Source: Escherichia phage JohannLBurckhardt. Taken from it: a DNA stretch of 49,715 nt. This document shows positions 32,641 to 47,938 of this stretch, piece after piece (position 1 is the stretch's first letter; the number at the start of each line of letters is the position of its first letter). The notes beneath the pieces are model-generated. The model had not been told where the DNA came from. It made no database searches and saw only the letters and a list, made by a program, of their open reading frames with translations. The position numbers and the translations under genes were made by a program. The stretch lies in the sequence record MZ501085. The stretch is one strand, 5' to 3'.

Positions 32641-33759
32641 ATGATTCAGAAAATGACAGATCAGCAGTTTAAAGACGCGCGAGCGGAGGGCAAAACCTAC
32701 AAGCAGATCGCGGACGAGTTCGGCTTGAATGTTCGCACCGTTGAGCGCCGCGCGGCACGCCTTGCTCGCCAGGGTGAGACTGACACGAAAGGCGCACCAG
32801 GTTTTGCGGTTGTTCGTGAGTCAGTCCTGACCCGCGCAAACGGCGAAGAAGTGATGCGCTGGACTATCACCAACAAAGATAAAGAGCAGTTGGAGGCGCT
32901 CATGCAAGCCGCGATGGACGCATTCGCTGAGGAAGTGCCGCGCCTGGAGCCTCAGCAGGAAAGCCGAAAGGACTACAGCGAAAGCCTGGCGCTATACCCT
33001 ATTTTTGACATGCACATTGGCGCAATGGCTCACAAGCATGAATGTGGTGAGAATTGGGATACAGCAACAGCCGAGAAAGTCATGAATGACTTCTTTGATT
33101 ATGCGGTTGAGTGTGCGCCAAATAGCGAGAAAGCCGTGCTCCTGATTGGTGGAGACATGCTTCACAGTGACGGCCTTGAGGCTGTAACACCTGCCAGCGG
33201 TCACGTTCTGGATCAGGATAGCCGATACGCCAAACTTGTTTATGTCGCAATCCGAGCAACTCGCCGCGCTATCTCATTGATGTTGACCAAGCACAAAGAG
33301 GTTGAAATTCAGGTGATCGAGGGCAATCATGACCAATCAGGCATGATCTGGCTACGCGCAGCAATGGCGGCGGCATACGAGGACGAGCCGCGCGTGATGG
33401 TTGATGTTTCTCCTCGCGTAGTGCATCACACGCAGTATGGTAAAACATTCCTCGCTTATCATCACGGTCACACCGTGCGCAAGCCGGAAACGTTATTGAT
33501 GATGTGCGCGGCAGATTGGCGCGAGGATTTTGGCAAATCAAAATCAATGTATGCTCATGTAGGCCATTGGCATCACCAGACCGTAACAGAAACCAGCCTG
33601 GGGATTGTTGAAGTTCATAGCACAATGGCGGCCAAAGATGCGTATGCGGCACGCGGCGGCTGGCGCTCTCGTCGTCGCGCTGCGGTTATCATCTACGATA
33701 AAGAGCACGGAGAGATCGGGCGCTTTATGTTCTACCCTGAAATGATGGAGTCAAAATAA
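32641..33759 (+). CDS. calcineurin-like metallophosphoesterase with N-terminal HTH domain
   Basis: 372 aa; DMH...GGDMLHSD...GNHDQ phosphoesterase motifs; N-terminal KTYKQIADEFGLNVRTVERR HTH-like. Confidence 0.65.
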   Translation: MIQKMTDQQFKDARAEGKTYKQIADEFGLNVRTVERRAARLARQGETDTKGAPGFAVVRESVLTRANGEEVMRWTITNKDKEQLEALMQAAMDAFAEEVPRLEPQQESRKDYSESLALYPIFDMHIGAMAHKHECGENWDTATAEKVMNDFFDYAVECAPNSEKAVLLIGGDMLHSDGLEAVTPASGHVLDQDSRYAKLVYVAIRATRRAISLMLTKHKEVEIQVIEGNHDQSGMIWLRAAMAAAYEDEPRVMVDVSPRVVHHTQYGKTFLAYHHGHTVRKPETLLMMCAADWREDFGKSKSMYAHVGHWHHQTVTETSLGIVEVHSTMAAKDAYAARGGWRSRRRAAVIIYDKEHGEIGRFMFYPEMMESK

Positions 33760-33929
33760 TGAAAGTTAAATGCGTTGAGAATTCATCTAAAACACTGCCT
33801 TACTACGAGGGCTTTGTGTACGAGGCCGATCAATTACCTGGCGGGATGTACAAGATTAAAGATGAATCAGGGCAGCATGTTATTGCGCCGCTAAAAGGGT
33901 ATTATCTGGAGTTTTTACAGATTGATTAA
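33759..33929 (+). CDS. small protein (56 aa), MK.IR-family-like N-terminus
   Basis: ATG overlaps upstream TAA (TAATG), GGAG 8 nt upstream; not in ORF track (<60 aa). Confidence 0.45.
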   Translation: MKVKCVENSSKTLPYYEGFVYEADQLPGGMYKIKDESGQHVIAPLKGYYLEFLQID

Positions 33930-33952
33930 CATTTAATTTCATGAGCTTACAA

Positions 33953-33981
33953 AGGGCTGGCGTTTGCTAGCCCTTTTTTTA
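33953..33981 (+). terminator. rho-independent terminator
   Basis: AGGGCT...AGCCCT hairpin followed by 7 T. Confidence 0.8.
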
Positions 33982-34056
33982 TTGTTTCGCTTTTGCTCAT
34001 TGCTGGTTAACATACACTCACTTAATTATTGACATTTTGCACGAGGAGGTTAGATC

Positions 34057-34272
34057 ATGAGAGAATTTTTAAACGCAGCAACCACCAGCACCGGAGGAGC
34101 ATCACTGACGGGCGCGGCGACGGGGCAAATGACCATTGCGGTTGCTGGTCTTATCCTAATGGCGGCCTTTGGCTTTTGGGGCGCGTATCTGCGCTGGAGG
34201 GATAGCAAGGCGCTGCGAGAGGCTTTGGATCGTGAAGATATCAAAGAGGCAATTCGAATCAGGGGGAAATAA
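34057..34272 (+). CDS. holin (pinholin-like)
   Basis: 71 aa; Gly/Ala-rich first hydrophobic segment plus second TMD, charged C-terminus; immediately upstream of SAR endolysin. Confidence 0.6.
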
Positions 34273-34274
34273 TC

Positions 34275-34769
34275 ATGAGTTTACAGAGAAGCGCGGCATA
34301 CGCTTTATTTGGCGCTGCGCTCTCGCTAACTTCTCCACTCCTGGAGGAGATCGAGGGCATTCGCTACAAGCCTTATAAAGATATTGCCGGAATCTGGACA
34401 GTATGCGCGGGTATTACCGGATCTGACGTTGTTCTTGGTAAGACGTACACGCAGAGAGAATGTGACGCACTTCTTGCCAAGCATATCGGTATTGCAAAGG
34501 CAGAAGTCGATAAGCGCGTTAAGGTTGAGATACCGGACACTATGCGTGCGGCGATGTATAGCTTCACTTACAACGCTGGTACTGGAGCGTTTCGAAAGTC
34601 AACCATGCTCAAGAAGATCAACAATGGTGATCTTTATGGGGCGTGCGACGAGCTTTGGAAATGGACGTATTACTACAATCCAAAAACGGGCAAGCGCGAG
34701 AAGTCCAGAGGGTTAAAAAACCGTCGCGCGGTTGAGTATAAATATTGCACTAAGGATCTGAAAAAATGA
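34275..34769 (+). CDS. SAR endolysin (GH24 lysozyme)
   Basis: 164 aa; catalytic triad spacing E-x8-D-x5-T ([16 protein letters not shown]); N-terminal weakly hydrophobic Gly/Ala/Ser-rich signal-anchor-release segment. Confidence 0.85.
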
Positions 34770-35161
34770 AACGATTAGCTTTAGCGGTACTGGTTGCCGC
34801 CTCTCTTTCTGGTTGTTCGGCGTCAAGCGCCCTGAGTGGTTTAGTCGGCAGCAAGCCGGAAATTACAGCACAGGCAGGAGCCGAAAACGTAAAGCAAACA
34901 GTAGGCGTAACGGCAAAGAATGACGAGAGCAGCAAGCAGGAAAACACGATCAAGGATTCGCAGGTTGGCAAGGTTGACTCCTCCAACAAAAAGAAGGTGA
35001 GCACTTCAAGCATCCAGGCTGAGACAATCACAGCCGACAAGATCGAGATCAGAAACAGCGAGAGCGATTTGTATGTGATATTCTTTGCGCTGGCTTGCTT
35101 ATTTGTTGCTGGCTTTGCCGCTGGCGTTTTTTGGAAGGGCAGAAAAAACAAAGGGGCATAA
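34766..35161 (+). CDS. unimolecular spanin (u-spanin)
   Basis: 131 aa; lipoprotein signal with lipobox LSGC at N-terminus and C-terminal TMD ([22 protein letters not shown]). Confidence 0.75.
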
Positions 35162-35173
35162 TGCCCCTTTTTT
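35141..35173. terminator. bidirectional rho-independent terminator
   Basis: A tract, GGGGC-ataat-GCCCC, T tract; between convergent spanin and - strand genes. Confidence 0.85.
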
Positions 35174-35293
35174 CATTCCAGTAGTCTGACGTTGACCAAT
35201 ACAACTCCGTCCCCGTCGTGCAGGTTGTGCTCCTTTGCCGGATTAGCTCGCATATCGCTGTACAGGATCAGGAGAAGCGCCGCAATCATTTCG

Positions 35294-35686
35294 TCATGCG
35301 ATACCGAATTTACGGCGCAGTGCTTCATAATCGCATCTATTAGGCTTTGTGTTGAATAATTCATCGTCGCTTAACTCGTCAAGGTGAAACAGATCGTAAA
35401 TATATTTATTGCTCTCACCCTCCAGGCTATACAGTTCAAATCCAAACGGCCTCTTGTGCGAGCCGTAGCACGTCACTACGCCTTTATCTATCCCAAGATA
35501 ACCCAATGTAGCCATGCGTGGGATAAACTCAAGAGAAACGCTTGAGGCGAATTTCCGAGGCGTCATATTTGCGGCTCTTGCGAGCCGCTCACATTCTTTG
35601 TGCTGAAAAACAAATCTGGCTAAGTGCTGGCGATTAAACCAATCGTAGCTTTCGCAAAACTTATACAGATCCAGCAGAAACATCAT
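35294..35686 (-). CDS. hypothetical protein
   Basis: 130 aa; ATG 3 nt after stop of upstream P-loop gene. Confidence 0.5.
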   Translation of the reverse strand: MMFLLDLYKFCESYDWFNRQHLARFVFQHKECERLARAANMTPRKFASSVSLEFIPRMATLGYLGIDKGVVTCYGSHKRPFGFELYSLEGESNKYIYDLFHLDELSDDELFNTKPNRCDYEALRRKFGIA

Positions 35687-35689
35687 TTA

Positions 35690-37267
35690 TCACCCCATTA
35701 AAGCAGGATTCACAAACACGCGCCCATTCGTGAGGCATACGTAATTAAGATCTTCAAGGATTGGAAGCAAGTGATCCTCAATTCGCTTCATCACACCAGC
35801 CTGACCCAGGAACGGACGAACCTTGCGCACGGATTCGTAAATCGCCCGTGCAGTGATAGCGCCCTTATTGGCTTTTCCGAGCCTTGTTATCGTGTCGATA
35901 ATCTTGATCAACTCCGCATCCTGACCAGCATGACCGGAAGCATTTGCAGCGCTGATGTAGGTCTTGCTCAACTCCTGGAACATCAAGAGCGCCTCCTGCA
36001 TCGTCTCAACGTCAATCTCTCGTGACTTTGTGGCGGTTCCGTTAACATCCTGCCAGTTTCGGATCGTGTGAATAACGGATGCCAGGCGAATGACTTGTTT
36101 ATCCATTTTACCCAATGCGCCGCGTAGCATGGTGTGAGAATATTCTCCTCCGTCTGCAAGCTTTGGCTCCATTTCCTGGCGTGCAATGTTGAGCACCCGC
36201 ATAGCGGAGCGGCTAACCTTCAATGAAACGGATTGCTCCGTCATGATATTGTGGATCAGCTTGTAATAGTCCGCTTTAAGACCTGCATCAACTGGCGTGT
36301 AGGTTGTGTCTCCTTTGTCGTCAACAAACTTACGGCGGCCTAAGAATGATTCCTCTCGCACAAGCAAGAAACGTTCAGAAACACCGATACCACGAGCACC
36401 AGCCTCCATAATGCCGCTGATTGTTTCGTCCTGCGCAATCACAGCCATGCAACCTAGAGCCGTAAAGCTCATGTTGTTTTCTGCATTTGCACGGGCGATG
36501 GAAACGTGACCGCTATCCCAAGCCTTTAGCACCAATTCGCTGTTAGTCTTGCGCTCGCTATTGGCGTATGTCAGTCCGAGCAGTGAGTTGATACTTGTTG
36601 CCTCGTCCGAGATAACAGCAAAGTTACCCTGGCGAAAGTTGATTTTAGCCAAACCCTCTGGAGTGGTATCTGAAACAGGAAACACAACGTCGCACAGTTT
36701 AGCCAGCTTTTCCTCGTACTCCTCTTTCTCCTCGTAAAGCGCAGCGTACTCAGTGCCGGAGCGCTCGCTCTTTAATTCCTTTGCGATCCCGTTGAGTTTC
36801 GCCTGAATCTTTTTGCGCTCTTTCTTGCGTTGCTCGTTGATTCGCTCAACCTCTGCAACAATCGGAGCAATCGCCATTGAGTTGATCGCAGATTTACCAG
36901 TAGACGGCGGCTGGCTTGTAACAACGTATAGCGCCGTTGGCTGATCGGTTCCGTGGTATTCAACGGAGAATCTCCCGAGCATCGCGGCAGACACGCAGCC
37001 TACAAAGTGCATATAGGCAGATGAAACAGGGAATTGCACAGACTCCGCCAGGCTGCGAGACAACTTGCCTACAACGTCGCAATCGTTGCCGAGGGAAATA
37101 ACAGGGTATTTGTCGTTTCCGCTGTTAATGTCCTTCACGTCACCCCAAAAACCAGACGAGCGAGAGTATCCGTTTGCCTGGATTGCAACCTTAACGGCGC
37201 TCAAGCCTTGAGCCTCAGCCGTTGAAATGATTTGTTGTGGTGTCAGCGTGGATTGTTCAAAAAACAT
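35690..37267 (-). CDS. P-loop NTPase (putative replication/helicase-type protein)
   Basis: 525 aa; Walker A SQPPSTGKSA and Walker B-like VISDEAT; RBS AAGGAG; downstream of motif site n. Confidence 0.5.
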   Translation of the reverse strand: MFFEQSTLTPQQIISTAEAQGLSAVKVAIQANGYSRSSGFWGDVKDINSGNDKYPVISLGNDCDVVGKLSRSLAESVQFPVSSAYMHFVGCVSAAMLGRFSVEYHGTDQPTALYVVTSQPPSTGKSAINSMAIAPIVAEVERINEQRKKERKKIQAKLNGIAKELKSERSGTEYAALYEEKEEYEEKLAKLCDVVFPVSDTTPEGLAKINFRQGNFAVISDEATSINSLLGLTYANSERKTNSELVLKAWDSGHVSIARANAENNMSFTALGCMAVIAQDETISGIMEAGARGIGVSERFLLVREESFLGRRKFVDDKGDTTYTPVDAGLKADYYKLIHNIMTEQSVSLKVSRSAMRVLNIARQEMEPKLADGGEYSHTMLRGALGKMDKQVIRLASVIHTIRNWQDVNGTATKSREIDVETMQEALLMFQELSKTYISAANASGHAGQDAELIKIIDTITRLGKANKGAITARAIYESVRKVRPFLGQAGVMKRIEDHLLPILEDLNYVCLTNGRVFVNPALMG

Positions 37268-37295
37268 CTTAAAGTCTCCTTGTTGGTTGACCCGT

Positions 37296-37338
37296 ATTAT
37301 AGGTCAACCATCTTACAGCCTTTTAGCAATTCGTGCTA
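37296..37338 (-). promoter_or_regulatory. palindrome-type promoter element (site n)
   Basis: On - strand TAGCA-cgaat-TGCTA, 22 nt, TATAAT inside GGTTGACC/GGTCAACC inverted repeat; TAG is stop of upstream gene. Confidence 0.6.
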
Positions 37339-37581
37339 TTTTAAACGTTCAACTTTTGCTAATAATCTTCCGTCAACTATTGAGTGACACTCAAGCGTTT
37401 CAGGATCAAAATCAAGCGACTTATGGAAGGTGTGACCAATCAGCCACTTGTCGCCACGGTCACGTATAAGATAAACCTCCTCACCCTCAACCAGGCTTGA
37501 TGTTGTTCCGTACACGACGCGGAACCTGTTTTTGCGCATCGCGGCTGGTACGTGCTTTTGGTAGTCAACGCCTGTGATCAT
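37336..37581 (-). CDS. hypothetical protein
   Basis: 81 aa; ATGA overlap with upstream gene. Confidence 0.5.
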   Translation of the reverse strand: MITGVDYQKHVPAAMRKNRFRVVYGTTSSLVEGEEVYLIRDRGDKWLIGHTFHKSLDFDPETLECHSIVDGRLLAKVERLK

Positions 37582-37943
37582 GAATATTTAGCCTCAAAAA
37601 GATAAGAACCACCAGCAGAGAAACCAACCTCCTCCCGATACAGAGTGAAGCGGTCGCCGTCCTCGTCAAACACATAGCCAGCAACGCCGCCCAATACGCG
37701 CCCTTGTTCGATCTGGTAGCGCTTGCCAGCCTTGAACGTTTTCTTGTGCTTCATGCTATGGTCTACCCAGGTGCATTTTATTGTTTTGGTCTTGATCTCA
37801 CGGAAATCATTAAAATTTGCGTTCTCCCACTTTGCGCCTTTGGTTAACTCCTTAACCTGGAAGGAACCAGTTTCAAAGAATTGAACCTCGTCAACAATAC
37901 GACCTTTCATTAACTTGTTGTCAGAGTTGCGGATAACTTTCAT
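37578..37943 (-). CDS. hypothetical protein (MK.IR / AGK.Y small-protein family)
   Basis: 121 aa; RBS AAGGAG; contains FKAGKRYQIEQG segment shared with several + strand small proteins. Confidence 0.55.
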   Translation of the reverse strand: MKVIRNSDNKLMKGRIVDEVQFFETGSFQVKELTKGAKWENANFNDFREIKTKTIKCTWVDHSMKHKKTFKAGKRYQIEQGRVLGGVAGYVFDEDGDRFTLYREEVGFSAGGSYLFEAKYS

Positions 37944-37972
37944 GATTTGCTCCTTTCGTTTGATGTGGTTGC

Positions 37973-38015
37973 ATAATAGCGGATCTTATCGACCCGCTTT
38001 TAACAAAAAGTGCTA
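37973..38015 (-). promoter_or_regulatory. palindrome-type promoter element (site o)
   Basis: On - strand TAGCA-ctttt-TGTTA, 22 nt, TATTAT in AGCGG/CCGCT hairpin; leader CAAACGAAAGGAG. Confidence 0.6.
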
Positions 38016-38726
38016 TTTTGAGTTAGCCAGCCATACAGCAATAGCCAGGCCGCGAGGAGTGAGCGAGCGAATCAGTTTTGTTCGCGCTGATTTACCGCCT
38101 AATTTCTTCCAGCCTGGATTGTCATTCCCAACCGGATACACTGGCAAAGCCTCAGGCATCACAAAGCCGTTACCAGTCCAAAGGCAAGTTTGCTTATTGT
38201 AAGCGTCACTCGCTGGGATGATATCAGGAAAGGCAGGGTGAGCTTCATCCTTGATATGGATGTAGCCGCCATAGTCGCACGGATGGAATTTATGATCCGG
38301 CTTGCGCCATAGCGTTGACAGCTTGCCTACAGGGTTTTCGATCATGTACGGCACGCCGAAATGATCAGCAATGTCAGCCGCAATCTTGCAGGTGTTTGCC
38401 GCCTCAACCTGGAATTTCGGATTCAACTCAGCTTTGCGCTTCCAGTGGCGAGAGCCGGAGTTAGCCAGGTCTGTGCATGGCGGGAATGCCATAATGAAAT
38501 CAGGCTTGCCGTAAAATTCCATTTGCGCACGGTGGCGGAAATCGCTGTCAATCCATGCGTTAACATATTCGATGTTCGGATGCGTTACGCGCACTGATTG
38601 GTACGATCCGTGATCACCTTTATCGGCATTAAAGCAAATCACTTTGTAACCAGCTTTCGCCCACGGCAGAGCCGCATAGCCGGAGCCGTCGAACATTGAG
38701 AAAACCAGACCTTTGATGTTGTTCAT
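38013..38726 (-). CDS. putative DNA (cytosine-5)-methyltransferase
   Basis: 237 aa; motif order FSMFDGSG (motif I-like), PPCTD (PC motif IV-like), ENP (motif VI-like) with C5-MTase-like spacing; short for the family. Confidence 0.5.
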   Translation of the reverse strand: MNNIKGLVFSMFDGSGYAALPWAKAGYKVICFNADKGDHGSYQSVRVTHPNIEYVNAWIDSDFRHRAQMEFYGKPDFIMAFPPCTDLANSGSRHWKRKAELNPKFQVEAANTCKIAADIADHFGVPYMIENPVGKLSTLWRKPDHKFHPCDYGGYIHIKDEAHPAFPDIIPASDAYNKQTCLWTGNGFVMPEALPVYPVGNDNPGWKKLGGKSARTKLIRSLTPRGLAIAVWLANSK

Positions 38727-38736
38727 TTTTTAACCC

Positions 38737-39021
38737 TCAGAATGGGAAGCAACGCTTGCAAGCCGGATCGAATTCACAGCCGCAGTCATTTACAATCATG
38801 GTTGGATCGGCAAACATCGCTCCGCTTTCCATATCCATATCCATATCGCCAAGCGCATCATCCAGCGTGCGCAGTTTATAAGCAACCTCAAGCGCTGCCT
38901 CTTTATTCAGTCCAGCAGCCTCCGCTTCATGTAGGCGGGCAAAGAAACCATCTTGTACCACAATTTTCTCCTCTAAACTGGCGGCGCAATTGCCGCCTTT
39001 AAACCAATCAGGACTTATCAA
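38737..39021 (-). CDS. hypothetical protein (acidic, Cys-containing C-terminus)
   Basis: 94 aa; coupled to upstream gene. Confidence 0.5.
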   Translation of the reverse strand: MISPDWFKGGNCAASLEEKIVVQDGFFARLHEAEAAGLNKEAALEVAYKLRTLDDALGDMDMDMESGAMFADPTMIVNDCGCEFDPACKRCFPF

Positions 39022-39245
39022 GCTTTCCAGGTTTCGATATACATCGAATTTTCATCCAGGAAGTTAATCACGTCTTGCTTGCTGTACTGGCGCAGGGTGC
39101 AGCGCGGTGATGTTCCAACGGTGTAGCAGCCTTTACCCTCGGTGATGGTCACTTGCTTGATTTTCTCGCCTGGGATGTCGCACTTGATGATCACGCGATG
39201 GTGGCTATCAAGGGTTTTCATGATGTTTTCGGTTTTGAGTTTCAT
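39018..39245 (-). CDS. hypothetical protein
   Basis: 75 aa; RBS GAGGA; first gene after motif site p. Confidence 0.5.
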   Translation of the reverse strand: MKLKTENIMKTLDSHHRVIIKCDIPGEKIKQVTITEGKGCYTVGTSPRCTLRQYSKQDVINFLDENSMYIETWKA

Positions 39246-39276
39246 TCGTTTATCCTCGTTCGTTGTTGATGGCGCT

Positions 39277-39319
39277 ACTATAACGGGACGAAGCGCCGGA
39301 GTTTTAACAAAAAGTGCTG
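39277..39319 (-). promoter_or_regulatory. palindrome-type promoter element (site p)
   Basis: On - strand CAGCA-ctttt-TGTTA, 22 nt, TATAGT inside GGCGC/GCGCC inverted repeat; TGA stop of upstream gene abuts motif. Confidence 0.55.
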
Positions 39320-39586
39320 TCAGTTGTAGATAACACTTTTAATCTTCTTGATCTCGTCAACTAGCTCTTGTTCGTCGTGAATCATGGAGGGCGAGCACTC
39401 CCAACAAGCGGAGGGAAGTTTCTTGTTCTTGCCCTTAATCAGAAAGCCGCCCATTAACTCCCAATTGCAGATAAGGCGATCATCACGCATATCGTACAGG
39501 TTGAACAGGTTGCGACGCTCGCCACTAACGTAAATCTTCACCCCATTGTTGCGGCAGAATACGCGCAATTCTTTCGTCGCTCGCAT
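39320..39586 (-). CDS. hypothetical protein
   Basis: 88 aa; coupled. Confidence 0.5.
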   Translation of the reverse strand: MRATKELRVFCRNNGVKIYVSGERRNLFNLYDMRDDRLICNWELMGGFLIKGKNKKLPSACWECSPSMIHDEQELVDEIKKIKSVIYN

Positions 39587-39780
39587 TATTCACTCTCCAG
39601 TACAGTAACAGGTTCCAGGCGCTCCAGTACAACTTTAAAATCCGCAAAGAATGTCGGCCTACGTTCGGTTAGCTCGGTATAGGTGTCAATCGCTAGAGTT
39701 GCGCGATCACCTTCATAGCACACCACACGCTTTCCACCTGCGCGGCTGATTGCCACCACGCGATAGGTATTCTTGATCAT
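39586..39780 (-). CDS. hypothetical protein
   Basis: 64 aa; ATGA overlap. Confidence 0.5.
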   Translation of the reverse strand: MIKNTYRVVAISRAGGKRVVCYEGDRATLAIDTYTELTERRPTFFADFKVVLERLEPVTVLESE

Positions 39781-39980
39781 TAAATAACCTCCATAACAGT
39801 ATGCTCGTCACCAGCCAGTGACCAGAGAGTGTTAGTAAGTTGCTTCACTTTCCAGGTGAGGCCGGAGTGATAGCAGACCATTTCCTCAAGGTCGATTGTG
39901 ATCTCAATGCCTTTCTTGAAGATTCCAGGCGTCAGCTCTGGATTGCGGCGAATAACTTTAGCGTCTATCTGGTCTTGCAT
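39780..39980 (-). CDS. hypothetical protein
   Basis: 66 aa from ATG 39980 (RBS GAGGAA); longer track ORF start would lie inside the promoter element. Confidence 0.5.
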   Translation of the reverse strand: MQDQIDAKVIRRNPELTPGIFKKGIEITIDLEEMVCYHSGLTWKVKQLTNTLWSLAGDEHTVMEVI

Positions 39981-40012
39981 TTTTGATTCCTCAGTTTCGT
40001 TTTGTTGAGGCA

Positions 40013-40055
40013 ATGATACCGCATCGCATCTGACTGGTTTTAACAAAAAGTGCTA
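40013..40055 (-). promoter_or_regulatory. palindrome-type promoter element (site q)
   Basis: On - strand TAGCA-ctttt-TGTTA, 22 nt, TATCAT; leader CAACAAAACGAAACTGAGGAA. Confidence 0.6.
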
Positions 40056-40334
40056 TCACTTCATCATATGCAGATTGTTAGCGATAAACTTGACAACTTC
40101 ACGCAGTTGCTTTTCGTCAAAGATAGTCGCTGGCAATTCTTCTTTCAAATCCTGGTGCAGATAAACGTTTCCGTGCCAGGCGAGTTTGTCATGCTCGATG
40201 CGATAGCTACACATCCACTCACAATCGTTGTCAGCTTCCCAAATGCACAGAGCGGTGTAGTCGCCCAAATCCTCAACGGTTAACTCAATGCCGCGTTTCT
40301 TTGCCATGTTGAAAGTGGTCTTGCTGATGTTCAT
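40056..40334 (-). CDS. hypothetical protein
   Basis: 92 aa from ATG 40334 (RBS GAGGAAAA). Confidence 0.5.
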   Translation of the reverse strand: MNISKTTFNMAKKRGIELTVEDLGDYTALCIWEADNDCEWMCSYRIEHDKLAWHGNVYLHQDLKEELPATIFDEKQLREVVKFIANNLHMMK

Positions 40335-40365
40335 TTCGTTTTCCTCAGTTCGTTTCGTTGAATGC

Positions 40366-40409
40366 ATTATGACAAATCCTATCCGCTCTTTTTTTAGCAA
40401 AAAGTGCTA
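40366..40409 (-). promoter_or_regulatory. palindrome-type promoter element (site r)
   Basis: On - strand TAGCA-ctttt-TGCTA, 23 nt, CATAAT; leader TTCAACGAAACGAACTGAGGAA. Confidence 0.55.
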
Positions 40410-40424
40410 TTTAATCGGTAGTCA

Positions 40425-40525
40425 GTGATTTTGATGATTGCTTGACCACTTTTGCAATGATGTTTTTGATGTCCGTCAACTTTTGTGTGATTGTGATGAT
40501 TGTTGATGTTTTTTGATGTGATTTG
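40425..40525 (+). repeat. degenerate short tandem repeats (TGATG / TTTTGATG units)
   Basis: gattttgatgattg...caatgatgtttttgatg...gattgtgatgattgttgatgttttttgatgtgatttgaatg in AT-rich noncoding region. Confidence 0.5.
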
Positions 40526-40698
40526 AATGTGGGAATCAGCATGGCCTGGCGGTGTCGTTTTTGCGCTCTCGAAAACTCCGCCCTGTTATCTTCTGTTTGC
40601 ACTCGTTTCCTCTTGTTACCGAAAGTACGGTGGCGTAGTTTGTTCGTGTTTTTCGCGTAGCAGAAACAAAAAAAACTTTTAATTACCCTATAAACAAC

Positions 40699-40737
40699 TA
40701 ATAAAATCAATAGTTTATTTATATATATTATATTTGT
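40699..40737 (+). repeat. AT-rich conserved block, copy 2 (direct repeat with 21344..21384)
   Basis: TAATAAAATCAATAGTTTA identical 19-mer plus similar flanks. Confidence 0.7.
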
Positions 40738-40995
40738 TTTCACTACGTTATACTTGTTCCATATGGTATGGGGTGGTTATGGGATTTTATTATTGGTGGT
40801 ATTGGTTAATTTATAGGCATGTTCCGCTCAGGATGTGTGCGATTCATCATTTCGTTGTGGTTGCTTTGGGTGACATATACATATTTATTATGTCCTCCGA
40901 AAAAACTGTAACGGCTGTAACATGCAAAAAACAGAATTTATAATCATAAAAATCAACAACTTGCGATAAATTTTGTTTTTCGGCTCAAAAAAAAC

Positions 40996-41024
40996 TTGTG
41001 GAAACCGATTGTAACATGCATAAT
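40996..41024 (+). promoter_or_regulatory. candidate sigma70-like promoter for right-hand early operon
   Basis: TTGTGG - 17 nt - CATAAT; leader CACGAAACGAAC then GGAGG and ATG 41057. Confidence 0.4.
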
Positions 41025-41056
41025 GCACCACGAAACGAACAAGCGGAGGTAAAACT

Positions 41057-41482: not shown

Positions 41483-41484
41483 TT

Positions 41485-41745
41485 ATGTGCAACGAGAAAA
41501 TCGATCAGCTTGTAGACGAAATCATTGAGGCGCACGACCGCGCCGGATTCAACTCTATCTTTATGGTATGCCCTGACGCTTTCGGCATTACAGAAAGCGA
41601 GCTTAAAGAGGCGGTTGAGCAGGTGGAGTCCGTACTCCGAACCGATAACTCTGGTGACGAAATCTTTTCAGCCTTGACTGCTTGCGATGGTGGCGGAGTG
41701 TTTACTCTTTCGCTTGTTAACGCAAACACGATCCTGACCATCTGA
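41485..41745 (+). CDS. hypothetical acidic protein
   Basis: 86 aa; strongly acidic. Confidence 0.5.
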   Translation: MCNEKIDQLVDEIIEAHDRAGFNSIFMVCPDAFGITESELKEAVEQVESVLRTDNSGDEIFSALTACDGGGVFTLSLVNANTILTI

Positions 41746-41753
41746 TTGGTAAA

Positions 41754-41796
41754 TAGCACTTTTTGCTAAAACAGCCCCGCGCGAGTGGGGCATAAT
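41754..41796 (+). promoter_or_regulatory. palindrome-type promoter element (site g)
   Basis: TAGCA-ctttt-TGCTA, 22 nt, CATAAT; leader CTCAACGAAACGAATTGAGGAG. Confidence 0.6.
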
Positions 41797-41829
41797 GCAC
41801 TCAACGAAACGAATTGAGGAGACTGCAAA

Positions 41830-41985
41830 ATGTTTACACTGATTACCTGGGAGCACGAAAACAGCGAGCCAGTATCCGTAACATACGATTGGCTGGCTCA
41901 GTGCTACAATATCGCCAAAAACGGTGGTTTCTACAAAGCGCAGATTGTTAACGAATTTGGGGTTGTTGAGTATGAGTTTCATTAA
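41830..41985 (+). CDS. small protein (51 aa)
   Basis: ATG 7 nt after GAGGAG, first ORF after site g; not in track (<60 aa). Confidence 0.4.
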   Translation: MFTLITWEHENSEPVSVTYDWLAQCYNIAKNGGFYKAQIVNEFGVVEYEFH

Positions 41986-42181
41986 TGCATGTGACGTCAA
42001 GCCTGGCGTTGTGTACCGCTCAAAATACACAGATCGGCTGTGGCGCTGGGATGGTGCAACTATGTGGACGAAAGGCGCGGGAGATGTGATTTGGCATGAA
42101 TCCGGCTGGCCTCACCCAACAATGACGCGCAAGGACATCGCTTATTATCTGGCAGTTGGCGAATTCGAGGAGGTTAAATAA
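41972..42181 (+). CDS. hypothetical protein
   Basis: 69 aa from ATG 41972, overlapping end of previous small ORF. Confidence 0.45.
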   Translation: MSFINACDVKPGVVYRSKYTDRLWRWDGATMWTKGAGDVIWHESGWPHPTMTRKDIAYYLAVGEFEEVK

Positions 42182-42369
42182 TGCTCAAGACGGTTCACCC
42201 TGACACGCACGGCGACGAAATGAGAATCTACGGGCGGCATGACAAGATCCACATTGACGGATGCTTTGACGGCGAGCGAATCGCCTGGCGTGGAATATAC
42301 ACGCATAAGCAAGCGCGTGAGATTGCAGAGAGACTTAACGACCTTGCAGACATTATGGAGGGCAAATAA
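42181..42369 (+). CDS. hypothetical protein
   Basis: 62 aa; TAATG overlap. Confidence 0.5.
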   Translation: MLKTVHPDTHGDEMRIYGRHDKIHIDGCFDGERIAWRGIYTHKQAREIAERLNDLADIMEGK

Positions 42370-42554
42370 TGATCAGATTCAACGTTGACTATCCAGGCTT
42401 TATTGCTGGCAAGACCTATCAAGCGAAATACGCAGCGCACCCATTCTACGGCTACCTTGCAATCAAGGTTGTGGACGAGGACGGCGATGCGCGTTACCTG
42501 GCGATTGAGTTGCTGGAGGACGGATCCATTGTTGAGGTGGATGATGAAGATTAA
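42369..42554 (+). CDS. hypothetical acidic protein (MK.IR / AGK.Y family)
   Basis: 61 aa; FIAGKTYQ motif; acidic C-terminus. Confidence 0.5.
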   Translation: MIRFNVDYPGFIAGKTYQAKYAAHPFYGYLAIKVVDEDGDARYLAIELLEDGSIVEVDDED

Positions 42555-42894
42555 CGCACAAGCACGCAACTACGCGCTAAAGCACGGGATTCACATCTAC
42601 GGACTGACCAACGAGCAGAGCCGCGCCTTGGTTTTCTACGATATCGCCAGCGGAACAAAGCTATGCACTTACAAGAGCTACAGCGATGATAACCCATTGC
42701 AGAAGTCGCTCAACTACAAGATGAAGCCGGAAACCTGGCAAGCGATGCCGGATGATATCCGCACGGCTCAGGGTGTGCAAAAGGCAATCGAGGCTATGGT
42801 TGCAACTGGCACGGCGCGACCGCTGGACGAGGACGAGCTAGCGGAGGCACGCAACAAGATCCTCAGTCGGTCAACTGGAGTTAAGATCATATGA
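42541..42894 (+). CDS. hypothetical protein
   Basis: 117 aa from ATGATG 42541 (RBS GAGGTGG); N-terminal extension in track overlaps previous gene. Confidence 0.5.
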   Translation: MMKINAQARNYALKHGIHIYGLTNEQSRALVFYDIASGTKLCTYKSYSDDNPLQKSLNYKMKPETWQAMPDDIRTAQGVQKAIEAMVATGTARPLDEDELAEARNKILSRSTGVKII

Positions 42895-42955
42895 GCAGTT
42901 GGCACAATGAGCACGTCATGCAATTCTACCGCCAAAGGATAAAGAAAATCCTCAA

Positions 42956-42998
42956 TAGCACGAATTGCTAAAACACCAGATCGGGGTTGCGCTATAGT
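42956..42998 (+). promoter_or_regulatory. palindrome-type promoter element (site h)
   Basis: TAGCA-cgaat-TGCTA, 22 nt, TATAGT inside GGGGT/ACCCC inverted repeat; leader ATCGAAACGAAAC. Confidence 0.6.
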
Positions 42999-43034
42999 AA
43001 CCCCATCGAAACGAAACACGCTGAGGAGCACAAA

Positions 43035-43202
43035 ATGAAATCTCGCAAATACCGCAACATCTTCAACAACCTGACATACTGGCTGGAGGACGGCGCTGTC
43101 ATGGTTAGCAACGGCGAGCAAACAAATAAATCGCTGTTAAGCGCAGAGGAGTTTTTCATTGCGGTAGGCCGTGACGTTCTGGTACTGATTGAGGGGGAAT
43201 AA
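43035..43202 (+). CDS. small protein (55 aa)
   Basis: ATG 43035 after GAGGAGCA; first ORF after site h. Confidence 0.45.
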   Translation: MKSRKYRNIFNNLTYWLEDGAVMVSNGEQTNKSLLSAEEFFIAVGRDVLVLIEGE

Positions 43203-43205
43203 TAC

Positions 43206-43448
43206 ATGCTGTCAATTCGAAACTGGTTTATGCGCTTCATCGGGAAAGAGGTTGAGGCTTTCGGCTACAACATTCCGGCAAACTTCAAGCGTGCCTGCCC
43301 TGGCAATGCCAGCGGGGTTTATTGGGAAATGCCAGACGGCACATACTGGTTCACGATAATTTCTGGAATGCCGATCCAGGTTAGTGAGCGCGACTATGAG
43401 CGCGGGACGTGGTTTAAAGCAATGCTTGAAGTAGGGGAGGAATTTTAA
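43206..43448 (+). CDS. hypothetical protein
   Basis: 80 aa. Confidence 0.5.
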   Translation: MLSIRNWFMRFIGKEVEAFGYNIPANFKRACPGNASGVYWEMPDGTYWFTIISGMPIQVSERDYERGTWFKAMLEVGEEF

Positions 43449-43984
43449 TGATCAAATTTGAGCTTTGGGGTTACACGTACCATCTGCGCGGCACTTACGG
43501 CGTTGCAATCGTTGACCTGGACGGCACGCTTTCTGACGGCACGCACCGATTGCACCTGCTACCAACAAAGGACTTGCACCTCACCGAAAGTTGGAGCGAG
43601 TTTAACAAGGCTGCTGTAAACGATAAGCCGATTCAGAGCACGATTGATGTTGTGCGTAACCTTTGGCGTGCTGGAATGGGCGTCGTTATCCTGACTGGTC
43701 GCAGTGACGAGGTGGAAACCGACACTATCCTTTGGCTCGACCGCCACAAGGTGAAATATGACTGGCTTATCATGCGCCGCGCAGAGGATAACCGCAAAGA
43801 CACCGTTATCAAAGAGGAGGTGTTGCGTGCAATCGGTCTGCATCATATTACGTGCGCCTTTGACGATTCGCCAAACGTGATCAGCCATTTTCGCAGCCTG
43901 GGAATCACAACCTATCAGGTGACGGAATACGACAAGCCGCACTCTCATTTACAGAGTCACGGCGTGGATGAATTAGATGGATAA
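43448..43984 (+). CDS. HAD-superfamily phosphatase (polynucleotide 3'-phosphatase/nucleotidase-like)
   Basis: 178 aa; motif I VDLDGTL (DxDGT), later ILTGR and FDD motifs. Confidence 0.6.
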   Translation: MIKFELWGYTYHLRGTYGVAIVDLDGTLSDGTHRLHLLPTKDLHLTESWSEFNKAAVNDKPIQSTIDVVRNLWRAGMGVVILTGRSDEVETDTILWLDRHKVKYDWLIMRRAEDNRKDTVIKEEVLRAIGLHHITCAFDDSPNVISHFRSLGITTYQVTEYDKPHSHLQSHGVDELDG

Positions 43985-44189
43985 GATCGTAACCTGGATT
44001 TTCGGATCGGTGATTACCGCTCTATCCGTCCTGCTGGTGCTCATAATTGGGGCGGCGGTATACATGGCAGCGAGCGACGATTACACCTGCGAGAAAACAG
44101 GCCGCCAGGTTCTTGTGATGATTCCGGCTGGTAAAGTAATGGTTCCTATCATGCAGGACGAAACTATTTGCAAGAGGGTTGAGAAATGA
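43977..44189 (+). CDS. small membrane protein
   Basis: 70 aa; N-terminal TM helix. Confidence 0.5.
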   Translation: MDKIVTWIFGSVITALSVLLVLIIGAAVYMAASDDYTCEKTGRQVLVMIPAGKVMVPIMQDETICKRVEK

Positions 44190-44401
44190 TTGTGACGCAC
44201 AACGTAGAGCAGAGCGAAAACACCGCGCAGGATATGATTGCCGGAATGACGCCAAAATCTCACAGAATGGTGCGAGTGTGGGGTTTTCAGGGCAATGTAA
44301 GCCAAACGCTCAAGGAAATTTTAGACCTGCCACAAGTTGATACAGCGCTTGTGGGGGTGCATACAAACGAATATGTTTCTTTCCACATTGTGACAAAGTG
44401 A
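44186..44401 (+). CDS. hypothetical protein
   Basis: 71 aa; ATGA overlap. Confidence 0.5.
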   Translation: MIVTHNVEQSENTAQDMIAGMTPKSHRMVRVWGFQGNVSQTLKEILDLPQVDTALVGVHTNEYVSFHIVTK

Positions 44402-44407
44402 GGACTC

Positions 44408-44617
44408 ATGATCTTGAATGTTGCCTTTGCCAATCCGAGAGGGTGCAATATTTACGGCTTCAAGGTTGGCGCAGCGGTTAACGCCAGGCGCGACGACAAA
44501 GGGAGGCTCATAGTAAAGGCTCCCAAAACTGGAGTTGATATGTGGATAAAGGAGAACGGCGTACGGCTATTTATCCGCTCAATGTCGGGGCAAACGCTAG
44601 CGACTTTCACAAAATAG
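44408..44617 (+). CDS. hypothetical protein
   Basis: 69 aa; stop TAG is first triplet of motif site i. Confidence 0.5.
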   Translation: MILNVAFANPRGCNIYGFKVGAAVNARRDDKGRLIVKAPKTGVDMWIKENGVRLFIRSMSGQTLATFTK

Positions 44618-44657
44618 CACGAATTGCTAAAACGCGCTCCGCCAGGGGCGCTACAAT
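44615..44657 (+). promoter_or_regulatory. palindrome-type promoter element (site i)
   Basis: TAGCA-cgaat-TGCTA, 22 nt, TACAAT; leader resembles that of the 21665 promoter (TACAATGCAC..ATACCAAC). Confidence 0.6.
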
Positions 44658-44689
44658 GCACCCATACCAACCAACGAGAGGAAAGCAAG

Positions 44690-44923
44690 ATGCAAGCAAA
44701 GATTAAAACCATTGGCGGATACACCGGAATGAAAAACGTCAAGCTGCCGCTGACACTAAAGGCGGTTTCCAGTGGTTACGGCACGGTTGATGTGAGCATG
44801 GCGGAACTGATTCACCACGGCTATGATTTTGCAGCAGGTCAGGCAGACGAAATCCCGGACTGCGAACCAAACGCTCAAACACTAACTTTCATCATCGGAT
44901 CAGAGGCGGAGATTGTAGAATGA
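44690..44923 (+). CDS. hypothetical protein
   Basis: 77 aa from ATG 44690 (RBS GAGAGGAAA). Confidence 0.5.
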   Translation: MQAKIKTIGGYTGMKNVKLPLTLKAVSSGYGTVDVSMAELIHHGYDFAAGQADEIPDCEPNAQTLTFIIGSEAEIVE

Positions 44924-45150
44924 AATATCAGATTTTTAAGGCAGTAGACAAGCTGGACGGCGATGTATCACTTTTCGCTTTTGATGAGCAAGAAAACTAC
45001 ACAGTCATTTATCACTCTGACTACATGCTTGGAAGGCTGGTTGAGGAGATTAAATCCGGCAAAGGTTGCCACTGGTCAGCGGATTCAATCAGCTACCCGC
45101 GCCGCAATGATATGGTTAATCCGGTTCTGCTTTGCGAGATTGAAGCATGA
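44920..45150 (+). CDS. hypothetical protein (MK..I family-like)
   Basis: 76 aa; ATGA overlap. Confidence 0.5.
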   Translation: MKYQIFKAVDKLDGDVSLFAFDEQENYTVIYHSDYMLGRLVEEIKSGKGCHWSADSISYPRRNDMVNPVLLCEIEA

Positions 45151-45338
45151 AGTGCATACGGTCAACATACGATATATTCAAGGCTGGTGAAAGTTACCAG
45201 CTAATTGAGAAAGGCCAGGCTGGGCGGTTCACGGTGTACGAATACACCGACGCGCAAGGTTGGGTTTACACGTTCGGACTTGACGAGAACGGCGAGAACG
45301 AAACAGACGGCAATTTCATTAAATTTACAAAGGAGTAA
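45147..45338 (+). CDS. hypothetical protein (MK.IR / AGK.Y family)
   Basis: 63 aa; MKCIRSTYDIFKAGESYQLIE. Confidence 0.5.
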   Translation: MKCIRSTYDIFKAGESYQLIEKGQAGRFTVYEYTDAQGWVYTFGLDENGENETDGNFIKFTKE

Positions 45339-45342
45339 CAAG

Positions 45343-45573
45343 ATGATTGAGATTCTATTCGAGGGCAACTCTAAGCCATTCAACGGCGTACAGATCCACA
45401 AAGACGCAACGCACGCGGTAGCGGGTCGCAATTTCGGTACTTACTTTAAGCTCAATGGGGAATGGTATTTTACTGTTTTCACCTGCCACGCGCTTAAAGC
45501 AACGGTTGCGTCTCATGACTTTGATATCCGCGATCACATAAGAGACGACGCAAAAATCACAGCGCTTAAATAG
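45343..45573 (+). CDS. hypothetical protein
   Basis: 76 aa from ATG 45343 (RBS AAGGAG); stop TAG is first triplet of motif site j. Confidence 0.5.
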   Translation: MIEILFEGNSKPFNGVQIHKDATHAVAGRNFGTYFKLNGEWYFTVFTCHALKATVASHDFDIRDHIRDDAKITALK

Positions 45574-45614
45574 CACTTTTTGCTAAAGACTTTCCGCGAG
45601 GCCATTGATATAGT
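45571..45614 (+). promoter_or_regulatory. palindrome-type promoter element (site j)
   Basis: TAGCA-ctttt-TGCTA, 23 nt, TATAGT inside GAGGCCA/TGGCCTC inverted repeat. Confidence 0.6.
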
Positions 45615-45652
45615 GGCCTCATTGAAAGCAACCACGCAAACAGGAGATAAAA

Positions 45653-45811
45653 ATGCGTAACTTTGAGAAAATCCGCACTAACAAAGACCGTCGCGCCGCT
45701 GGTGAGATTGTGGACTCACACCGTCGCCGCAAGAAAACCCAAAAGCGCGGGAGTGCGGAAAAGCGCATGGATTGGGATCAGCTTCAAACTAACTACAAGG
45801 CAGGTCGATAA
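45653..45811 (+). CDS. small basic (Arg/Lys-rich) protein (52 aa)
   Basis: ATG after CAGGAG; stop TAA overlaps the kinase ATG; the longer track ORF 45663..45905 is in another frame and overlaps the kinase gene. Confidence 0.45.
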   Translation: MRNFEKIRTNKDRRAAGEIVDSHRRRKKTQKRGSAEKRMDWDQLQTNYKAGR

Positions 45812-46380
45812 TGAAAAAGGTTATTATCCTCAACGCGCCGCCAGGTGCTGGCAAAGATACGGTTGGCAACCTGATTTGCAAGCACGCGCCGCAATACATT
45901 GTTAAGCGCTCGTTCAAAGAGCCGATGTTTAAGATAGCAAAAGCCATGCTGGGCGATTATCGTTTCAGCCTGTTTATGCAAGCGTATGACGACAGGGAGC
46001 GGAAGGAAAGAGCACAACCATTCCTGAATGGTAAATCTCCGCGCCAGTTTATGATCTGGATTAGCGAGGACGTGATAAAACCTCAGTTTGGGGATCAGTA
46101 TTTTGGCGCAGTAATGGCTGAGGCAGTGCGCGATAGCCATGCCCCGATTGTCATTACTGACGGCGGTTTCCCCGATGAAGTTAAGCCGCTGGTCAGCGCT
46201 GGCATTCAGGTAAATATTTGCCGCCTACATCGAGACGGCTACACGTTCGCCGGAGATAGCCGAGACTATCTCAACCTTGGGGGCTACCATCACCGAATCG
46301 TGACGCGGGATTATATTATGGTGCATGGTGATCCAATGCACACGGTAGACCAGATTTGCGAGGATATACTAAGTGATTAG
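45811..46380 (+). CDS. P-loop kinase (dNMP kinase / polynucleotide kinase-like)
   Basis: 189 aa; N-terminal Walker A LNAPPGAGKDTVG. Confidence 0.55.
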   Translation: MKKVIILNAPPGAGKDTVGNLICKHAPQYIVKRSFKEPMFKIAKAMLGDYRFSLFMQAYDDRERKERAQPFLNGKSPRQFMIWISEDVIKPQFGDQYFGAVMAEAVRDSHAPIVITDGGFPDEVKPLVSAGIQVNICRLHRDGYTFAGDSRDYLNLGGYHHRIVTRDYIMVHGDPMHTVDQICEDILSD

Positions 46381-46476
46381 CACACCGAACGATCCAAAAG
46401 AGCCGTTTGACTTCCACAAGGCCGCCGTTATCGGCCTTACAATCCTAACTGTCATTTACACTGTACGAGGTATTTT

Positions 46477-46674
46477 ATGGCTGTTAACACACTAAAGCGA
46501 ATTGGCGTTATCATGCTAATTATCGGAGGGTCATTACTAACAGAGCCAGGTTTTGCAAACGCGGCTGGAAGTATGGCGCTGTTAATCGGCGGTCTTATTG
46601 GCGGCTACATGGACGGCGTAAAGGCTGGACGGCGTGAGGCGTTCGGCGGCGAAGATAAAAATCCGATCAAATAG
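46477..46674 (+). CDS. small membrane protein
   Basis: 65 aa; Gly-rich hydrophobic segments; stop TAG is first triplet of site k. Confidence 0.5.
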   Translation: MAVNTLKRIGVIMLIIGGSLLTEPGFANAAGSMALLIGGLIGGYMDGVKAGRREAFGGEDKNPIK

Positions 46675-46714
46675 CACGAATTGCTAAAACTTCCGCGAGG
46701 GCATTTGATAAAGT
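46672..46714 (+). promoter_or_regulatory. palindrome-type promoter element (site k)
   Basis: TAGCA-cgaat-TGCTA, 22 nt, TAAAGT in imperfect inverted repeat. Confidence 0.6.
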
Positions 46715-46755
46715 GTCCTCATTGAAGTAAAGCAACCAATCAAGGAGATAACGAA

Positions 46756-47034
46756 ATGGCTACTATCCGCAAACACCTGGTAAACGCATTCGAGAACGTT
46801 GGCGAGAGCTACGGCTGGGATGATGGACTAAAAACACCGTACACGGCACGCCGTCAAGGTTTCAAAACACTGCGCGAGTGGGCGCGTTGCATGGCGGCTA
46901 ACTACATGCCGGAGAACTGGCAACTCATGCCTGACACTCTGCGCGAAATGATCGAAGAAGCACAGGCGGCGGGTGTGCCACTCACTCAGCATGATTTTGA
47001 CGCGTTCGCAGAGGAGGAGATTTCATGCTGGTGA
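46756..47034 (+). CDS. hypothetical protein
   Basis: 92 aa; RBS AAGGAG. Confidence 0.5.
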   Translation: MATIRKHLVNAFENVGESYGWDDGLKTPYTARRQGFKTLREWARCMAANYMPENWQLMPDTLREMIEEAQAAGVPLTQHDFDAFAEEEISCW

Positions 47035-47219
47035 AAATCCGCACTGATTATGAGGACTCGCCGTGGATAGCGGCGGGTAAGATTTACGAGGCGGTATTGG
47101 TCAAAACAGGCCGCTACGCAGGAATGTATAAGTTTATTGGGGAGTTAGGCTCCCCGTGCTACACAAGGCTTGAGCGTTCAATTCACATCGGCGGGAAAGA
47201 TTGGGAGATTGTAGAATGA
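47025..47219 (+). CDS. hypothetical protein (MK.IR / AGK.Y family)
   Basis: 64 aa; IAAGKIYEA motif. Confidence 0.5.
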   Translation: MLVKIRTDYEDSPWIAAGKIYEAVLVKTGRYAGMYKFIGELGSPCYTRLERSIHIGGKDWEIVE

Positions 47220-47653
47220 AATATTATGTACGCCCTACTGTAGATGGTGAAAACTTTACTGCTGGCAAGCTCTACGAGATCCAGCATGTTTTCGGCGGAG
47301 GTCGCGTTGTAGTGCTCAACGATGCAAAAGAGGAAATCATTGTGCGGTGCGATGGTGTTGTGTCGGCTCGCCTGGATTGGCGCGGGAAGTTTGATCGCGT
47401 GAACATCCCAAGCGCTCAAGAGGCGATGGAGCAAGCGCTCAAAACTGCGGAGTGGACAATTAGCAAGATCGGCTCCATGAACATAAGCGACGGCAAAATC
47501 TACGCAAGCGCATCGCCTCGCAACGAGTACGCCGAAGTGCTGGAACAGCTACGCGAAATTCTGCGCGTGCCAGAGGGCGAGAATATCCTGACTCATGCGA
47601 AAGTTGTTCGCGTGCTGGCTGATGGGTTGATCAACCTCCAGAAAACGAAATAG
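47216..47653 (+). CDS. hypothetical protein (MK.IR / AGK.Y family N-terminus)
   Basis: 145 aa from ATG 47216 (ATGA overlap); FTAGKLYEI motif; stop TAG starts site l. Confidence 0.5.
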   Translation: MKYYVRPTVDGENFTAGKLYEIQHVFGGGRVVVLNDAKEEIIVRCDGVVSARLDWRGKFDRVNIPSAQEAMEQALKTAEWTISKIGSMNISDGKIYASASPRNEYAEVLEQLREILRVPEGENILTHAKVVRVLADGLINLQKTK

Positions 47654-47693
47654 CACTTTTTGCTAAAACTCCGATGGGGTAGGCTGGTATAGT
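47651..47693 (+). promoter_or_regulatory. palindrome-type promoter element (site l)
   Basis: TAGCA-ctttt-TGCTA, 22 nt, TATAGT inside GGGGTA/TACCCC inverted repeat; leader ATCGAAACGAAAC. Confidence 0.6.
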
Positions 47694-47725
47694 TACCCCA
47701 TCGAAACGAAACGGAGACACCAAAA

Positions 47726-47938
47726 ATGAAAATTCGCATTACCAACGTACACAACCGCAAAACCCCAGAGGAATTAACCCTCGAGGAGTGCGGATTCAAG
47801 GTTGGCGACGTGGTAGAAATCGACGGTCACTTTAATGATGGGTCTTACTGCGTGATTGCTATCAGAAACACTGATTACATCTTTAAGGGTGATAACGTTA
47901 GCGTAGGCAAAGACGAGTGCGAGGTTGTAGAAGAATGA
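47726..47938 (+). CDS. hypothetical acidic protein (MK.IR family-like)
   Basis: 70 aa; MKIRITNVHN N-terminus. Confidence 0.5.
   Translation: MKIRITNVHNRKTPEELTLEECGFKVGDVVEIDGHFNDGSYCVIAIRNTDYIFKGDNVSVGKDECEVVEE

Follow-up and report, generated by a model that had tools for sequence, protein, structure and literature searches.

Two small barrel proteins of T1-like phages have been described in two recent papers, each of which treats its protein in isolation. Gp54 of phage Bas11 is a non-essential early protein of 66 amino acids (aa) that directly binds and activates the defence protein CapRelSJ46 (Zhang et al. 2024, PMC11578894). When bound, Gp54 has a partly unfolded barrel and contacts the sensor through G24, I25 and β2-β5. 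The topology of Gp54 was termed 'very rare' and the protein was treated as a CapRel trigger, with the remark that it may inhibit some other defence system (PMC11578894). DUF7244 is a stand-alone SH3 protein carried by 188 of 522 Drexlerviridae, in every case close to the lysis cassette. It was called SH3 from AlphaFold3 and Foldseek, a lysis-accessory role was proposed and paralogues were not mentioned (Eremina et al. 2026, PMC13164509). Bas11 is Escherichia phage JohannLBurckhardt (Drexlerviridae, Tempevirinae, Henuseptimavirus), a T1-like phage whose complete genome of 49,715 nucleotides (nt; sequence record MZ501085) is the whole stretch analysed here and is referred to as the window. The same genome that encodes Gp54 appears to hold six copies of a DUF7244-type domain.

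The six domains are designated m1, m2, m3N, m4, m5C and l8 (Table 1). Their best overall explanation, with a probability of about 0.7, is a six-copy family of SH3-like domains that serves as an early binder repertoire. The family and its fold, as described below, are themselves considered very probable.

Evidence for a shared domain family

Five of the domains had been grouped in an earlier note by a core motif. The pattern [FI].AG[KE].Y[EQ] occurs in exactly these five genes and nowhere else in the six-frame translation of the window. Five matches were observed in the 87-protein proteome against a mean of 0.007 (maximum 1) in 300 residue shuffles, and the relaxed pattern AG[KE].Y was also found five times against 0.52 expected. 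Similarity between single sequences is weak, the best phmmer match within the 87 proteins being that of the m1 protein (45147) with the m5 protein (37578) at E = 0.0027.

Stronger signals were obtained with profiles. Orthologues were gathered from 20 viral contigs, and an alignment was built for each small early-region protein. An all-versus-all hhalign comparison of 50 families (1,225 pairs) placed nine of the 15 pairs among m1, m2, m3N, m4, m5C and l8 within the top 19. With close homologues only, probabilities over 35-42 columns were 78% for m4-m5C, 47% for m3N-m4, 46% for m2-l8 and 40% for m1-m5C. Leave-one-family-out hidden Markov models (HMMs) of five families in every case ranked the left-out member top of about 430 six-frame open reading frames (ORFs), with E values from 2.4e-6 (m4) to 0.054; m1 was the top non-training ORF at E = 0.0034.

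A search of 1.84 billion representative proteins with a profile built from the six families retrieved 110 proteins at E <= 1e-3, many of which are 56-73 aa long and cover the whole profile, others carrying two to six tandem copies. Several bridging proteins are recognised by two of the family HMMs. For example, P0321 combines an m2-type HLDGxxWEV C-terminus with an m4/m5-type IIDDEGD hairpin. Each new domain was given to its single best family before hhalign was repeated. In these enlarged alignments m2 was paired with m3N, l8 and m4 at 98.0% (E = 2.6e-13, 51 columns), 96.9% and 93.1%, respectively, and m3N with l8 and m4 at 96.0% and 92.0%. The pairs m4-m5C and m4-l8 reached 83.4% and 76.9%, and m1 was linked to m5C at 65.4% and to l8 at 43.6%. 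Pairs at 65-98% over 36-51 columns connect all six families into one network, whereas none of 324 unrelated window-family comparisons exceeded 15.7% and none of 30 reversed-profile controls exceeded 2.4%. Comparison of HMMs and of predicted folds had been named in advance as the check on the family, and on both counts (these pairs against the low controls, and the same fold in both models) the result was favourable. On balance, the profile comparisons indicate that the six domains belong to one family, with m1 as the least secure member.

The family could be delimited in the window. The merged profile, compared with all 64 small-protein families of the window, gave no further member above 5%. 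Each of the core members matches a different uncharacterised PHROG, except the 47025 protein (m2), which matches none, and the family profile gave only chance-level matches to PDB sequences (E >= 0.03). Neither DUF7244 nor DUF6501 was matched at E <= 1 by the five core members or by 65 members of the 47025 family, so that the relation of the core members to DUF7244 is visible only at the profile-profile level.

The eight ORFs originally listed as family members are all present, and each corresponds to a 'hypothetical protein' coding sequence in Bas10 (IsaakIselin), the closest public genome (about 90% nucleotide identity over the region tested). The proposal of one small beta-rich domain, duplicated and diversified, holds for six domains, through the hhalign network and two AlphaFold barrels, and fails for two of the eight ORFs. 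Among the looser candidates, l8 was borne out by profile-profile similarity and by Pfam. The candidate l6 reached at most 3.4% with any family member; l7 reached 19% at best (with the l8 family) and otherwise less than 2%. No Pfam match was found for l7. Weak sub-threshold Pfam matches of l6 to DUF5666 (E = 0.007) and FeoA (E = 0.017) were recorded, and l6 is possibly another SH3-like protein. An N-terminal M-K-x-[IV]-R pattern had also been proposed; it is exact in two proteins only (45147 and 37578), and because 21 of the 87 proteins begin with MK, it carries little weight alone. It was rejected as a family mark, the shared feature being a β1 strand with a basic residue. The MKVIRN N-terminus of 37578-37943 sits in a different domain from the motif.

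A competing explanation of these similarities is convergence, in which independently derived SH3-like barrels that are not paralogues would have arrived at FxAGKxY, for example through a common partner or the stability of the turn. SH3-like folds arise in many lineages, the signal outside the motif is weak once the motif is masked, and Gp54, with no detectable homology, shows this fold together with an IFKKG element of similar appearance. However, the hhalign alignments cover 35-51 columns and not nine, the GG-x-Y-x-h-x-DExG element and the β1 pattern are common to the members and in register, bridging sequences such as P0321 mix subfamily features, and m2 and m3 are adjacent genes. Convergence is considered improbable.

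Predicted fold, function and the lysis region

AlphaFold2 was run for each protein with its own family alignment only. The model of the 121-aa m5 protein (mean predicted local distance difference test score, pLDDT, 85.7) consists of the two domains listed in Table 1, and the 14-residue β1-β2 loop of its C-domain ends in FKAGK. In the model of the 64-aa m2 protein (mean pLDDT 97.0) the motif lies at the end of the β1-β2 loop and the start of β2. The signature F-x-(A)-G-K-x-Y-E is placed by the models at the end of a long RT-loop-like β1-β2 loop and the start of β2. The hairpin that comes next is built from another conserved element, G-G-x-Y-x-h-x-D-E-x-G. Both models are small barrels of five or six antiparallel strands with SH3/KOW/Tudor-type neighbours. 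As modelled, the family domain (about 55-65 residues) is an SH3-like small beta-barrel. Among solved structures, 9AXB (Gp54) was clearly the closest to the m5C model; it ranked second for the 47025 model, without separation from generic barrels. A BFVD search with the 37578 model gave many uncharacterised T1-like phage proteins of 63-79 aa at a probability of about 1.

The members would be cytoplasmic, mostly acidic proteins expressed from short operons that are led by a recurring promoter-like cassette, and each may act as an early single-domain protein-binding module with its own host or defence target. By analogy with Gp54 bound by CapRelSJ46, binding would take place through the β1-β2 loop and the β2-β4 face. 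The members, like Gp54, are probably dispensable in the laboratory, and they would serve in host takeover or counter-defence and be exposed to detection by immune sensors. A protein-binding or counter-defence function is put forward tentatively on this analogy. A wider version is doubtful: T1-like and tandem-array phages might keep a fast-diversifying repertoire of SH3-like binders, with Gp54 as an extremely diverged member. On this view every copy would neutralise a host or immune protein of its own, sensors such as CapRelSJ46 would recognise the scaffold that the copies have in common, and the DUF7244 gene would serve counter-defence and not lysis.

Several points weigh against an early binder repertoire made by one family. 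When the nine residues of the motif were masked, five of the omitted members were recovered at ranks 1, 3, 4, 5 and 20 of 425 and one was not retrieved; all E values exceeded 0.1 and were non-significant, so most of the signal within a single genome is the motif. The bridging intermediates, on which the high hhalign probabilities depend, were chosen by means of a mixed profile, a procedure that can draw the family profiles together. The weakest member is m1 (65% and 44%), and the models cover two of the six domains (37578 and 47025). Four of six proteins are acidic (isoelectric point, pI, 4.2-5.2) and two are near neutral; the m5 protein is basic (pI 9.3) and differs in this from the other members. 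Gp54 gave hhalign probabilities of at most 1.2% with the six families, even with an enlarged Gp54 alignment. Deletion of gene 54 together with MCP I115F allows Bas11 to escape CapRelSJ46 fully (PMC11578894), which argues against the paralogues as CapRel triggers.

The members could instead be small nucleic-acid-binding barrels of the KOW, Sso7d or Tudor-like kind, with phage or host DNA, RNA or the transcription machinery as their target. This is judged about as improbable as convergence.

Marginally less probable still is a lysis-accessory role, in which stand-alone SH3 domains would modulate the endolysin or bind the cell wall, as proposed for DUF7244. The protein l8 exceeds the gathering score of DUF7244 (PF23896) at 92.5 bits against 27, over the full length of the model. 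The start of its gene overlaps the stop codon of an upstream exonuclease-like gene, and a strong terminator-like hairpin (33951-33976) precedes the holin gene; both argue against co-expression of l8 with the lysis genes. The early operons that carry the five paralogues are 4-14 kb distant. No member appears to belong to a lysis unit or to have the features of an SH3b-type cell-wall-binding protein. When the sequences were read, neither a signal peptide nor a transmembrane segment was visible in any member, and the members would consequently not reach the periplasmic peptidoglycan before lysis.

Convergence, nucleic-acid binding and a lysis-accessory role are each less well supported than the early binder repertoire. 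A chance or compositional motif in unrelated small ORFs is scarcely credible: single-sequence similarity is weak and the motif was defined after the fact, but the shuffles and the six-frame scan rule it out, with no match in the five non-coding frames, and every left-out member comes first in its search, the profile-profile comparisons give up to 98% with low controls and both models have the same fold.

Distribution and genomic setting

The features of the window are collected in Table 1.

Table 1. Member domains, rejected candidates, Gp54 and regulatory elements in the window
Feature	Position	Strand	Description	Remark
m1	45147..45338	+	63-aa single domain, FKAGESYQL, acidic pI 4.7	motif
m2	47025..47219	+	64-aa single domain, IAAGKIYEA	identical (100%) to bas11_0078
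m3N	47216..47401	+	residues 1-62 of 145-aa protein 47216-47653, FTAGKLYEI	motif and hhalign
m3 C-terminal extension	47402..47653	+	residues 63-145	unrelated to family
m4	42369..42554	+	61-aa single domain, FIAGKTYQA, very acidic pI 4.2	genus-restricted
m5C	37578..37787	-	residues 53-121 (69 aa), FKAGKRYQI	six-stranded barrel, long β1-β2 loop (model)
m5 N-domain	37788..37943	-	residues 1-52, MKVIRN...	beta-rich with one helix (AlphaFold2)
l8	33759..33929	+	56 aa, Pfam DUF7244 (SH3 clan)	92.5 bits, E = 1.7e-26
l6	47726..47938	+	proposed looser member	no profile support
l7	44920..45150	+	proposed looser member	no profile support
Gp54 of Bas11	39780-39980	-	CapRelSJ46 trigger	structures 9AXB, 9ERV
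Terminator-like hairpin	33951..33976	+	between l8 and holin gene	11-bp stem, 6 GC pairs, loop 4, then T run
Cassette copies	2102, 16189, 28340, 30832, 32031, 32364, 41753, 42955, 44614, 45567, 46671, 47650	+		
Cassette copies	40410, 40056, 39320, 38016, 37339	-		
Cassette directly upstream of m5	37945..38018	-		

A tblastn survey of 50,697 phage records gave the distribution of the members. Matches to the 37578 protein came from 825 records, in many of which the C-domain stands alone. The 45147 protein occurs in 72 records, about 60 of which are T4-like Krischvirus phages at about 55% identity, and the 47025 protein, m3N and the 42369 protein (m4) were found in 66, 18 and 8 records, respectively. 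The Krischvirus carriers of 45147 homologues are myophages of 150-165 kb such as ECD7, FL20 and Skers. These homologues indicate that the small gene has been exchanged between unrelated phage groups. Copy number was counted in 21 related loci, some of which are cut by contig ends. Variation among related phages had been predicted and was found, with one to seven family ORFs per locus; m5C and DUF7244 are almost always present, the m2-m3 pair is a common constituent, and the occurrence of m1 and m4 is sporadic. The family is accessory in T1-like phages and variable in copy number, and its copies arose by duplication (the 47025/47216 tandem) and by exchange between phages.

Two of the members are parts of larger proteins. 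The start of m3 overlaps the stop of m2, the two genes are tandem neighbours, and the C-terminal extension of m3 matches phrog_13504 (E = 7.6e-19) over residues 87-143 only. The N-domain of m5 reaches an hhalign probability of at most 8% with family members and is swapped for other N-domains in some orthologues. A BLAST match of residues 1-39 to 45147 had raised the possibility that this half is a duplicate of the C-domain; it was rejected on the hhalign value and because the superfamily HMM finds one domain.

Two distant relatives were located among the small accessory genes of other phages. Seven proteins (P0286, P0300, P0305, P0316, P0338, P0343 and P0361) carry two to six tandem domain copies per polypeptide, of the form MKVKCIDN...LTVGKEYEV...DDxG...RFE. 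The context of such tandem-array relatives, as seen in loci L022 and L023, is that of small accessory genes beside RNA ligase, dNMP kinase, ArdA or terminase genes. The two-domain matches P0138 and P0197 were set aside as exact internal repeats, which are probably assembly artefacts. The giant repeat proteins P0276, P0277, P0278 and P0282 (2,096-6,905 aa) top the representative search. They match profile positions 30-51 only (the YxFDxxG hairpin), 10-24 times each, which is a YD/RHS-like resemblance and not membership. A relation of the family to RHS/YD repeats was likewise rejected, 45147 scoring 15.2 bits (E = 0.03) for one hairpin only when Pfam RHS_repeat needs 22.

A promoter-like cassette is present in at least 16 copies in the genome. 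The copies were found as repeat families D1-D4 and by pattern search. Apart from the one next to m5, copies begin at 41750, 42952, 44611, 45567, 46668 and 47647 (+) and at 40410, 40056, 39320 and 37339 (-). The cassette reads (A/G)(T/C)AGCAC-N5-(G/T)(C/T)TAAAA, followed about 22 nt on by a -10-like TAtAaT, and continues after the -10-like box with CAACGAAACGAA and a ribosome-binding site; genes start 72-80 nt after most copies. It contains a palindrome, TAGCA-N5-TGCTA, whose centre lies about 41.5 nt ahead of the expected start site, and no -35 box is present at the canonical spacing. Many copies have a copy-specific dyad flanking the -10 box. A simple sigma-70 scan misses the cassettes, whose sequence resembles that of an activator-dependent (class II-like) promoter. 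Gene 54 lies downstream of the copy at 40056(-), and escape mutations in this upstream region lowered its expression (PMC11578894).

The earlier note had given many members a promoter cassette of their own. This is correct for 37578-37943 and for 47726-47938, which, together with gene 54, are first genes after a cassette. The other members are second to fourth genes of short cassette-led operons, 47025 being second, 47216 and 45147 third and 42369 fourth.

Other small paralogues were also observed. A second family, unrelated to the first, comprises 39320-39586(-), 42544-42894(+) and 40056-40400(-), with hhalign probabilities of 95% for 39320 against 42544 and 88% for 39320 against 40056. The protein of 46756-47034(+) has a PE(T/N)WQxMPDxxR stretch in common with 42544 (phmmer E = 0.002). 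The region of about 1 kb between the divergent early operons (39981-41056) has a high AT content (GC 0.44 for 40-42 kb) and lacks any counterpart of the Bas10 coding sequences; it holds the window-specific ORF 40056-40400(-) and two cassettes. A possible third paralogue pair is 43206-43448(+) and 45343-45573(+) (hhalign 54% over 50 columns). The capsid decoration protein 5344-5823(+) and the downstream 5868-6329(+) are paralogues as well (phmmer E about 1e-7, 28% identity over 150 aa).

Comparison with described small barrel proteins

The kind of domain is already catalogued (Pfam DUF7244, DUF6501 and the SH3 clan), and what is new is the unannotated members and their expansion, not a new kind of system. 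Gp54 and DUF7244 would be recast by the early binder repertoire as parts of an expanded and variable set of early genes, and the lysis hypothesis for DUF7244 is weakened. A defined set of six genes in an engineerable phage, for which escape-mutant methods exist, offers a route to what small accessory barrels bind.

For DUF6501 (PF20111) no publication was found, and no window protein matches it directly. Its gathering score is passed by the tandem-domain relatives P0286, P0316, P0338 and P0361, three of which also pass for DUF7244.

The other five domains align to the family profile of DUF7244 over 35-44 columns at hhalign probabilities of 23-97%. The β1 pattern, the (F/Y)xxGxxY element and the DExG hairpin are common to DUF7244 and these five domains. 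DUF7244 has been published as one copy per genome. The five core members lie in early operons and not beside lysis genes.

The PDB chain 'Gp54 from Escherichia phage Bas11' and the 66-aa product of 39783-39980(-) are 100% identical, and residues A7, G24 and W43 of this product agree with the published mutations. A sequence link between Gp54 and the family was rejected; the profiles show no similarity, and the likeness of IFKKG to IFKAG is only suggestive. Gp54 lacks the conserved Tyr and the DExG hairpin of the family and is a relative of the six-member family in fold only. Canonical small barrels (SH3, KOW and FeoA) have the same general five- or six-stranded barrel as that predicted for the family domain, in which the RT-like β1-β2 loop bears the family signature.

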